From positions 1,216,001 to 1,280,000 of the forward strand of contig JBGANV010000001.1 of assembly GCA_044222185.1 (NCBI GenBank): a stretch of 64,000 bases of DNA. The letters run 5' to 3'. The notes below the pieces were generated by a model that was not told the DNA's origin, searched no databases, and saw only the letters and a list, made by a program, of their open reading frames with translations. A program made the position numbers and the translations under genes. Origin of the DNA: Planctomycetota bacterium. Its GTDB lineage: Bacteria; Planctomycetota; GCA-002687715; CAIWVZ01. This document shows, piece after piece, positions 51,126-52,166 of the stretch. The first letter of the stretch is position 1. Each line of letters starts with the position of its first letter.

Positions 51126-52166
51126 ATGTGGTTCGCCCTTCTCGCTCTCGCCGGCATGACCCCAGTCAGCGCCGGCCCGCGCCCTGAGTGCCCGCCAGGC
51201 TACGTCGTCCAGGAAGTCGTCGTCCCGGTCTGGGAACCGGCACGCTACCAGCGCGTCGAGAAGCAGGTCTGGGTCGCGCCGGTCATCTGCAAGCGAACCG
51301 TCGACGAGTACGTTCCGCCGCGTTACGTCGACGTGCCAGAGCGCATCTTCGTTCCGGCGCAGTACCAGACGGTCGAACGGAAGGTCTGGATCCCGCCCGC
51401 CTTCGAGATGAAGGAGCGTCGCGTCTGGATCCCCATCGAGTACACGACGAGCAAGGTGACCGAGTGGGTTCCCGCTCGATTCGAAACCGTCGAAGAGCAG
51501 GTCTTCGTGCCGGCCACGTTCCACTGGGAAGTGGTGAAGGTGCCCGTCGAACCGATCTACGACGTGCAGGAGAAGAAGGTCTGGGTCGAGCCGCAGTTCA
51601 AGAAGGAGCTGAAGAAGTCCTTCGACCCCGTGACGAAACGCCCGGTCGTCGAGGAAGTCCAGGTGCAGGTCCCCGGCACCGGCGTTTGGCGTGTGGACAA
51701 GGTGAAGGTCCCCCGCCCCGGAACCGGTGGGTTCCGCGACGAGCGCCGCCAGGTCCAGGATCCGGGAACCGGGTGCAACAAGACCGTCCGGAAACAGGTG
51801 CAGGTCCCGGGAACCGGGTGCAACGTGAGCCGCGAAGTCCGCGTCCAGGTCCCCGGGACGGGCTGCTATCGCAACATCCAGGAGCGCTGCCAGGTCGCCG
51901 GCACTGGGGTCTGGACGAATCAGTGCGAGCAGGTGCTCGTCGCCGGCACGAACGTCTGGGTCGAGCGCCTCGTCCGCAAGCAGGTCGAAGGCACGGGCAT
52001 CACCGTGCGGCGCGAGATCGAGGAGACCCAGCCCGGCACTGGCGTGTGGAAGACGGTCTGCGAAGACGTCCTCATTCCTGGGACCGGGTGCTACGTGCAG
52101 AAGGTCGAGTACCGCGTCGTCCCCGACCCGCACCACCACGGCCACGGGCACGGTCGCGGCCGGTGA
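51126..52166 (+). CDS. Secreted Val/Pro-rich repeat protein (10 x 13 aa plus 10 x 15 aa) with a His-rich tail
   Basis: Strong SD, short signal peptide, two regular repeat arrays, strong codon bias. Confidence 0.85.
   Translation: MWFALLALAGMTPVSAGPRPECPPGYVVQEVVVPVWEPARYQRVEKQVWVAPVICKRTVDEYVPPRYVDVPERIFVPAQYQTVERKVWIPPAFEMKERRVWIPIEYTTSKVTEWVPARFETVEEQVFVPATFHWEVVKVPVEPIYDVQEKKVWVEPQFKKELKKSFDPVTKRPVVEEVQVQVPGTGVWRVDKVKVPRPGTGGFRDERRQVQDPGTGCNKTVRKQVQVPGTGCNVSREVRVQVPGTGCYRNIQERCQVAGTGVWTNQCEQVLVAGTNVWVERLVRKQVEGTGITVRREIEETQPGTGVWKTVCEDVLIPGTGCYVQKVEYRVVPDPHHHGHGHGRGR
51228..51617 (+). repeat. 10 x 39-bp degenerate coding repeat (VWVPx.[YF].......)
   Basis: Translation parses exactly into ten 13-aa units. 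Confidence 0.85.
51663..52112 (+). repeat. 10 x 45-bp degenerate coding repeat (VQVPGTG.[WYF]......)
   Basis: Translation parses exactly into ten 15-aa units; near-identical DNA CCGGGAACCGGGTGCAAC in adjacent units. Confidence 0.9.

Follow-up and report, generated by a model that had tools for sequence, protein, structure and literature searches.

A planctomycete repeat protein with two arms of equal unit number: predicted beta architecture and rare relatives

The open reading frame (ORF) encoding P0001 was analysed together with its relatives. It lies in a stretch of 64,000 nucleotides of a Planctomycetota bacterium (assembly GCA_044222185.1, contig JBGANV010000001.1, positions 1,216,001 to 1,280,000), referred to as the window, in which all unlabelled coordinates are given. 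P0001 consists of two arrays of unlike repeats, ten units of 13 residues (N-arm) and ten units of 15 residues (C-arm), separated by a short apex. The two arrays were also found equal in number in the countable relatives, and the charges of the two arms covary in a mirror register. These observations point to a beta protein whose strands would be paired across the two arms. The features of the gene and its product are given below.

51126..52166, forward strand: whole ORF of P0001, 346 residues and stop (ATG at 51126, stop codon at 52164-52166), with homologous intact ORFs in other genomes.
51113..51119, forward strand: Shine-Dalgarno-like AAAGGAG, read from the sequence, with an AAGGAG box about 6 nucleotides before the ATG.
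51126..51176, forward strand: predicted Sec signal peptide, residues 1-17 (MWFALLALAGMTPVSAG), judged by eye from a hydrophobic core and a VSA-G cleavage-like site.
51177..51227, forward strand: leader, residues 18-34, with Cys22 and the first strand YVVQEVVVP (AlphaFold2 strand E26-37); relatives have CHxxC here.
51228..51617, forward strand: N-arm, residues 35-164, ten 13-residue units of consensus V-W-V-P-A/P-x-Y/F-x-T-V-x-x-x; AlphaFold2 predicts ten strands of about 10 residues with 3-residue turns.
51618..51656, forward strand: apex, residues 165-177 (SFDPVTKRPVVEE); AlphaFold2 places the central loop at 167-172.
51657..52106, forward strand: C-arm, residues 178-327, ten 15-residue units of consensus V-x-V-P-G-T-G-C/V-W/Y-x-x-x-x-x-x; AlphaFold2 predicts strands of about 10 residues with 5-residue VPGTG turns.
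52107..52163, forward strand: tail, residues 328-346, ending in PDPHHHGHGHGRGR, with the His/Gly run HHHGHGHG at residues 336-343 (nucleotides 52131-52154).

The layout described in the initial annotation, ten 13-residue units, a turn, ten 15-residue units and an HHHGHGHG tail, was found to be exact by anchor spacing and autocorrelation. The P-x-x-aromatic anchor of the N-arm occurs ten times at a spacing of exactly 13 residues (residues 35 to 152), and GT[GN] occurs ten times at a spacing of exactly 15 residues (residues 184 to 319). For the N-arm the identity autocorrelation at lag 13 was 0.265, and for the C-arm it reached 0.415 at lag 15; none of 2000 shuffles matched these values in either arm, even when the best lag from 5 to 39 was taken. 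The DNA of the units is only 60-83% alike and Tandem Repeats Finder (TRF) reported no array except the His/Gly tail, therefore the repeats are old and have been maintained at the protein level. The mature protein of 329 residues contains 64 Val, 32 Glu, 31 Pro, 28 Arg and 20 Lys, which confirms the richness in these five residues noted earlier, and seven of its nine cysteines lie in the C-arm, in accordance with the annotated excess in the second arm. A three-unit super-period was also observed in the N-arm (51237-51521), where DNA copies of 51 nucleotides recur at a spacing of 117 nucleotides with 61-71% identity and the protein autocorrelation peaks at lag 39 (0.275), which suggests growth of this arm by three-unit blocks. 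The five strongest lags of the C-arm were 15, 30, 32, 17 and 13, with no 45-residue (three-unit) lag among them.

The superfamily to which P0001 belongs is rare. Among 1.84 billion representative proteins, 36 matched at E <= 0.001 and 3 at 1e-10. Word-indexed protein searches gave 2 relatives and then 9, whole-genome matches were obtained in 31 of 401 sampled genomes of the phylum and 4 of 23 of the order (own genome counted), and a metagenome scan gave 13 further loci. The relatives were sorted by eye into four groups. The first comprises the close relatives, with a 13-residue N-arm and a 15-residue PGTG C-arm; the second has 13-residue units in both arms and the apex R-R-V-D-x-x-G-x-x-Y-Y-V-N-V; in the third a long linker joins a P-G-H-Y arm to a W-I-P-P-x-C arm; and the fourth combines a 13-residue arm with a 14-residue x-x-G-H-W arm. 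Signal peptides are present throughout the family and, as judged by eye, are clearer in the homologs than in P0001. The own genome carries two further minimal members. L046 (G000:C16:404086-404340, reverse strand) is a secreted protein of 150 residues with about 2-3 + 2 units and the apex Y-D-H-C-G-R. L051 (G000:C15:465993-466349, forward strand) is a module of 2 + 2 units with which a long Pro/Gly-rich ORF ends; the frame of this ORF is open to the first base of L051, and its start lies beyond that locus.

The units of both arms were counted by hand from register prints, with the arm type assigned by a regular expression for PGTG. Among the close relatives with a PGTG C-arm, eight are complete, and their arms were equal in every case: 10/10 in P0001 and L002, 9/9 in L003 and L004, 8/8 in L031, 7/7 in L005 and 5/5 in P0004 and P0005. 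The arms were equal in all 34 distant relatives countable by hand as well, ranging from 2/2 to 6/6 in the group with 13-residue units in both arms (14 proteins) and from 3/3 to 6/6 in the 13/14-residue group (7 proteins), while the long-linker group (13 proteins) was 5/5 throughout, two of its members being also readable as 6/6. Covariation of the two counts across homologs had been set beforehand as a check on the annotated arrangement, and these 8 close and 34 distant relatives bear it out. The apex step, which separates the last anchor of the N-arm from the first anchor of the C-arm, was 27 residues in all 14 proteins of the 13/13-residue group and 26-28 residues in the close relatives measured (7 of 7). 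This check was semi-automatic: n units were stepped inwards from the outermost anchors, and the steps were regular at 13, 14 or 15 residues. As the relatives are kin, the independent changes of n are far fewer than the proteins.

Eight proteins were left out of the count, namely P0002, which ends at a contig end (6 versus at least 6), the fragment P0031, and P0036, P0027, P0032, P0040, P0042 and P0043, which are ambiguous by one or two units. P0007, P0012 and P0016, being perfect tandem repeats of other kinds, were dropped before counting; P0019, P0026 and P0038 (971-3296 residues) stand outside it; and L011 and L014 were 6/6 by eye, outside the table. Duplicates were removed (L012/P0015, L015/P0014, L017/P0003, L020/P0013 and L006/P0004). 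A lenient unit count by hidden Markov model was found to be too noisy and was dropped.

Antiparallel pairing of unit n with unit 11-n, proposed at the outset for P0001, gained support from the equal counts and also from a matched insertion, the termini and the charges of the strands. L005 has one long N unit (unit 4, 15 residues) and one long C unit (unit 3, 17 residues), each longer by two residues, and the lengthened strands s4 and c3 are mirror partners at n = 7. The termini also correspond. L002, L003, L004, P0004 and L031 carry CHxxC before the first unit and a Cys 19-20 residues past the last anchor, P0005 having neither; Cys is present at both ends in 10 of the 13 long-linker proteins; and in the 13/13-residue group the first strand has KKK versus EER in the last strand. 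P0001 itself has Cys22 on the N-terminal side and a His-rich tail without Cys at the C-terminus, and His-rich termini recur in distant relatives. No pattern of Cys pairing between mirror units was seen by eye.

For the charge test, the proteins were cut into 10-residue inter-turn strands blind to charge and the strands were compared across the arms. The net charge of mirror partners gave r = -0.26 (249 pairs) and was negatively correlated in all four groups, while registers shifted by 1 or 2 units gave +0.23 to +0.30 and the parallel register +0.02. When the C-arm strands were permuted within each protein, the observed value was reached in 0 of 20000 permutations for all proteins, 18 for the close relatives and 116 for P0001 alone; after removal of the apex and end pairs these numbers were 0, 115 and 416, each of 20000. 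At the central strand position, the mirror register contained 84 opposite-charge versus 4 like-charge pairs out of 247, and the shifted registers 55/22 (+1), 36/28 (+2) and 30/24 (-2). The close relatives had 15 opposite, 1 like and 13 hydrophobic-hydrophobic pairs of 62 at this position, and P0001 had 4 opposite, 0 like and 2 hydrophobic pairs of 11; a shift of 2 units in P0001 gave 0 opposite and 4 or 2 like pairs. The ion pairs predicted for P0001 are K46-E313, R85-E268, R98-E253 and E124-K223, and the predicted hydrophobic pairs are V59-I298 and V111-V238. A one-unit miscount would shift the register, thus the charge result also supports the unit counts. The strongest charge cells, (3,7), (5,5) and (7,3), fall on a single antiparallel diagonal at alternate residues, a position-by-position matrix in which face-to-face and in-plane pairing are indistinguishable. 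In L002 (genome G194, residues 56-185) the first residues of the N units alternate between Glu and Val/Ile (E,V,E,V,E,I,E,V,V,E), a 26-residue super-period not seen in P0001, which may bear on the face that each strand turns inward.

The structure of P0001 was predicted using AlphaFold2 with an alignment of 8 rows, and a mean predicted local distance difference test (pLDDT) of 67.8 was obtained, with 197 residues at 70-90. The model revealed 22 strands of about 10 residues, 11 before and 11 after the loop 167-172, with turns of 3 residues (P-A-R type) in the N-arm and of 5 residues (V-P-G-T-G) in the C-arm; this strand-turn secondary structure is predicted with moderate confidence. The prediction on the single sequence had a pLDDT of 37.1 and was unusable. 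A beta-solenoid was also considered; with strand-turn-strand connections of 3 and 5 residues and no solenoid among the fold matches, the pattern reads as a predicted antiparallel meander. As read from the register prints, the residues by which the subfamily periods (13, 14 or 15) differ are located at the Pro/Gly turn motif. Since strands stack at equal spacing whatever the turn length, unlike periods could pair one to one. Foldseek of the 8-row model against the PDB gave no match at E <= 0.001 (best TM-score 0.19), and VIA-align against 48161 chains gave a best Z of 2.8; due to the predicted template modelling score (pTM) of 0.24, these fold searches show neither novelty nor identity of the fold. 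A complex prediction of the N-arm (18-169) with the C-arm (170-338) scored 0.17 against a mark of 0.32 with no control runs, and was counted neither way.

The gene itself has a GC content at third codon positions of 0.876, compared to 0.67 for the GC content of the window. A scan for promoters and terminators gave no match, with about 0 and about 1 expected. Contigs from RNA libraries with at least 99% identity were found inside the ORF between 51100 and 51664 in 4 of 4 runs from 3 studies. Neither 50700-51083 nor 51724-52235 is covered by contigs of these four runs, a gap without meaning for expression. The deepest of these contigs (X15, depth 18.9) begins at 51100, 26 nucleotides 5' of the start codon; this start may lie near the transcript 5' end, which contigs cannot demonstrate. 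At least half of the sampled words were present in the DNA runs of 3 of 20 rows; these runs are metagenomes from bioreactors or activated sludge, and one of them may be the source.

The longer relatives (689-786 residues) carry OmpA and PG_binding_1 domains in 6 of the 6 found, and because of these domains a role in the cell envelope is likely. L043 (2094-3251, forward strand) is a metagenome lipoprotein with the lipobox LIGC and a PG_binding_1 match at 4.6e-07, in which a coiled-coil-like stretch is followed by 4 + 4 units of about 23 residues (I-P-A-x-Y...V-L-V) between two Cys, with a central irregular stretch; it may represent a mirror architecture with two-strand units. P0004 (5/5) has an extra C-terminal domain with a sub-threshold LPP20 match (19.3 bits versus a cut-off of 25.9), and P0005 (5/5) has a C-terminal extension that matched nothing in Pfam. 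A periplasmic or envelope scaffold, spacer or surface-binding slab, whose length would be given by the number of rungs, is the function proposed for P0001, at somewhat less than even odds. Together with the Cys/His motifs, the His-rich tail hints at a clasp formed by a metal or a disulfide.

The neighbouring genes were also inspected. The gene of P0001 is convergent with a TIG-domain gene and has the following divergent neighbour upstream.

48293..50905, reverse strand: M14-like carboxypeptidase of about 870 residues, Peptidase_M14 at 8.2e-15, given as context only.

An M14-like protein of about 870-890 residues is divergently upstream in three genomes of the order, namely in the window, in G177 (L024 1487-4162, reverse strand) and in G359 (L025 5186-7843, reverse strand), and in G194 the neighbour is a 791-residue protein with faint similarity to the M14-like protein (E 0.016). 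Two adjacent genes of the amidohydrolase family (1068 and 497 residues) lie at 53538-58068 of the window on the forward strand and overlap by about 170 nucleotides as listed ORFs.

The reading preferred here, with a probability of roughly 0.6 for the whole, is that P0001 is the product of a real, expressed-looking gene and a secreted, periplasmic or envelope-located all-beta repeat protein with two mirror-repeat arms, the strands of which are paired across the arms, and that it is an extreme, specialised member of a rare uncurated 'mirror' repeat superfamily. Each unit of 13 or 15 residues would form one beta-strand of about 10 residues and a tight turn, and the chain would run through 11 strands, reverse at the apex and run through 11 more. 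Strand k of the N-arm would pack antiparallel on strand n-k of the C-arm. Valines at strand positions 3, 7 and 9 would line the contact face, with either an ion pair or a hydrophobic pair at its centre. The arms would thus lie face to face, and on the outer faces Trp, Tyr and Phe would stand in rows next to charged residues. The object would most likely be a two-layer meander sandwich whose length is set by the number of matched rungs, about 5 nm for pairing inside a single chain and about 10 nm for a head-to-tail pair of extended chains. The open end would be closed in the relatives by the N-terminal CHxxC and the C-terminal CC or CH, as a putative disulfide or metal clasp, and in P0001 this end has Cys22 and the His-rich tail.

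Several observations weigh against this reading. The pTM of the 8-row model was 0.24, and two structure-aligner rows span residues 12-346 versus one segment of about 59 residues, a hint that the modelled sheet is extended and not folded back. An automatic dynamic-programming parser found equal arms in 17 of 56 rows, arms off by one in 22 and off by at least two in 17; it was dropped as a measure because weak anchors carried it across the apex and half-units at the termini entered its counts. P0036 (4-5 versus 2-4), P0040 (5 versus 4-5) and P0042 (4 versus 3) could be real exceptions to the equal-count rule. P0001 is without the C-terminal Cys of its relatives and its number of Cys, nine, is odd. 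The permutation of the central position in P0001 alone reached the observed value in 311 of 5000 cases, and kinship makes the permutation counts overstate independence. No consistent signal of charge covariation was obtained for consecutive strands of one arm, where a meander might show some. The strand of the RNA-library contigs is not readable and DNA carry-over is possible, the M14-like neighbour is probably plain synteny within one order, and the functional reading rests on domain fusions in distant relatives.

In an alternative arrangement the chain stays an extended 22-stranded sheet of about 10 nm and the mirror pairing is intermolecular, with two chains face to face and head to tail. 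Such a dimer meets all the sequence-derived constraints, namely equal arms, mirror charges and an N-terminal Cys beside a C-terminal Cys. The apex step of 26-28 residues equals two ordinary strands and a tight turn, the apex of the relatives is a D-x-x-G type hairpin as expected in plane, and the AlphaFold2 model, as indirect evidence, seems extended. A monomeric fold-back explains the data equally well, however; the extended dimer is considered unlikely, though credible.

It has also to be weighed whether the repeats are a scaffold only and the Cys/His-rich ends do the work, as in a periplasmic protein for divalent-metal binding, buffering or chaperoning. The HHHGHGHG tail, the CHxxC with CC or CH of the relatives and the His-rich termini of distant relatives agree with a metal role, and in G177 a ZIP zinc transporter gene lies 4 nucleotides past the frame of the homolog (4219-5214, then 5218-6093, same strand). 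However, this neighbour occurs in only 1 of 4 same-order loci, both Cys motifs are missing from P0005, and P0001 matched no metal-binding family in Pfam or NCBIfam. Metal binding would also leave the large, length-variable and strictly matched arms unexplained, and this explanation is rated as distinctly unlikely.

The fold proposed in the initial annotation was a single giant two-stranded beta-hairpin, a ribbon of about 40-45 nm in which the 130-residue arm is hydrogen-bonded in plane to the 150-residue arm and each PGTG forms a 2-residue bulge. With a ribbon, equal counts, mirror pairing and termini that meet would be expected, and each of these is observed. The covariation on one antiparallel diagonal at alternate residues might represent the non-hydrogen-bonded face in a ladder of two strands, and consecutive units of one arm without covariation are what a ribbon allows. 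However, AlphaFold2 places a turn at each P-A-R and V-P-G-T-G with strands of about 10 residues between them, at a pLDDT of 70-84 over most strands, so that VPGTG is read as a 5-residue turn instead of a bulge. Turns are also what Pro, Gly-Thr-Gly and Pro-Pro typically form, which counts against the ribbon too. Units of 13, 14 or 15 residues with the extra residues at the turn motif fit strand stacking, while the ribbon must absorb 20 extra residues, and a 45-nm ribbon two strands wide would have both edges unsatisfied throughout. The ribbon is thus judged improbable and the dimensions of 40-45 nm are probably wrong; the two-layer meander sandwich is favoured over it on the predicted strand-turn pattern. 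The mesh of Cys-linked ribbons envisaged in the same annotation likewise stays conjectural.

That P0001 has no defined fold, being a disordered or amyloid-like secreted product with equal counts from shared ancestry alone, agrees with the pLDDT of the single-sequence prediction, with the low pTM obtained even with an alignment and with the unit counts shared among kin, but it is scarcely credible in view of six n values on the diagonal among close relatives (5, 7, 8, 9, 10, plus 6 versus at least 6), a register-specific charge covariation in four subfamilies and old, diverged DNA repeats still at exact 13- and 15-residue spacing.

P0001 was compared with known families and belongs to no curated one. 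No meaningful match came from Pfam, NCBIfam or the PDB sequences (the best were LacZ_4 with E 0.053, a racemase with 0.21 and Argonaute with 1.2), and hmmscan of P0001 against all Pfam-A at E <= 10 returned only LacZ_4, with 14.3 bits versus a cut-off of 27.3. In Pfam and NCBIfam, ten relatives matched LPP20 and WXXGXW only, in both cases below threshold, none of 40 superfamily members passed any Pfam cut-off, and the best score in the ESM Atlas, 0.80, was below the useful range. A two-arm architecture with equal counts was found nowhere in the literature searched by motif words and family names.

The closest curated family is WXXGXW (PF12779), whose model of 26 positions for two copies implies a 13-residue unit, the period of the N-arm. 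A W-V-P-G-H-W type motif is present in distant relatives, P0013 reaching 17.9 bits versus the PF12779 cut-off of 18, and small secreted bacterial proteins are common to both. In the accessible part of a 2021 survey, WXXGXW is included among repeat families modelled without known structure and is given no PDB match (PMC8078820). In contrast, PF12779 gave no match to P0001 at E <= 10 and none in its own genome, the control genomes also giving 0; only 1 of 40 superfamily members was even marginal; and the 15-residue PGTG unit of the C-arm falls outside the description of the family. P0001 and its relatives would be placed among short beta strand-turn repeats of the WXXGXW type, with a fair chance of a new architectural class.

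A second likeness is to the repeat proteins with OmpA and PG_binding_1 domains (P0044-P0049 and L043; P-A-x-Y-E-T-V-T-E-Q), which were retrieved with profile E-values of 1e-11 to 1e-4 against 5.8 billion proteins. They share the strand motif P-A-x-Y/F-x-T-V-x-x-x-V with the N-arm, have Cys-x3-Cys just before the first repeat and are secreted or lipoproteins. They differ in having units of 22-23 residues, read as two strands each, and no PGTG arm, whereas P0001 contains neither OmpA (PF00691) nor PG_binding_1 (PF01471) and is far shorter than these relatives.

The planctomycete YTV proteins (PF07639) resemble P0001 in phylum, signal peptide and Cys-containing repeats, and the Y-x-T-V of the N-arm resembles the YTV motif. 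They are reported from cell-wall preparations in the accessible part of the source (PMC8567305). YTV proteins are described as cysteine-rich, whereas P0001 has only 9 Cys in its mature residues. The likeness to YTV wall proteins noted at first did not extend to membership of that family, P0001 having no PF07639 match at E <= 10 (profile cut-off 21 bits); a six-frame search of the genome for PF07639 also gave 0 matches, a weak result as the control genomes gave 0 too. A likeness to alveolins and articulins had also been noted. These are cortical cytoskeleton proteins of eukaryotes with repeat families of their own, and membership among them is set aside in view of the bacterial context, the relatives in Planctomycetota genomes and the absence of any Pfam family but LacZ_4; the likeness is in composition only.

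Among structural analogues, the OspA single-layer beta-sheet and the lacewing cross-beta silk are long antiparallel meanders of short strands with tight turns, rich in Val, Thr, Glu and Lys. Neither is known to have two different number-matched arms, and neither has a sequence or fold match to P0001. The antiparallel coiled-coil arms of SMC and Rad50 fold back at an apex within one chain and need equal lengths. They are helical, cytoplasmic and unrelated to P0001, and serve as an analogy only.

Repeat proteins are normally open-ended and their unit number drifts, whereas in this family two unlike arrays in one chain are locked to an equal number, from 2 to 10. The strand pairing described above provides a concrete structural prediction for a family without curated model, solved structure or fold match; if this prediction fails, the equal counts and the charge pattern still need explaining. 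It is put forward tentatively, at odds somewhat against, that these proteins form an undescribed 'mirror-repeat' beta sandwich, in which unlike arms zip rung by rung and a change of length needs both arms. If true, this would be a new way to build long flat beta-sheet objects of defined length and a natural template for the design of length-programmable beta-sheets, and the related 13-residue repeats of the WXXGXW type could then be interpreted structurally. The members, with 2 to 10 units per arm, would in that case serve as stiff spacers or rulers of graded length in the envelope of Planctomycetota and of other bacteria, and would point to a class of envelope proteins in a phylum whose cell wall is a subject of continuing debate.

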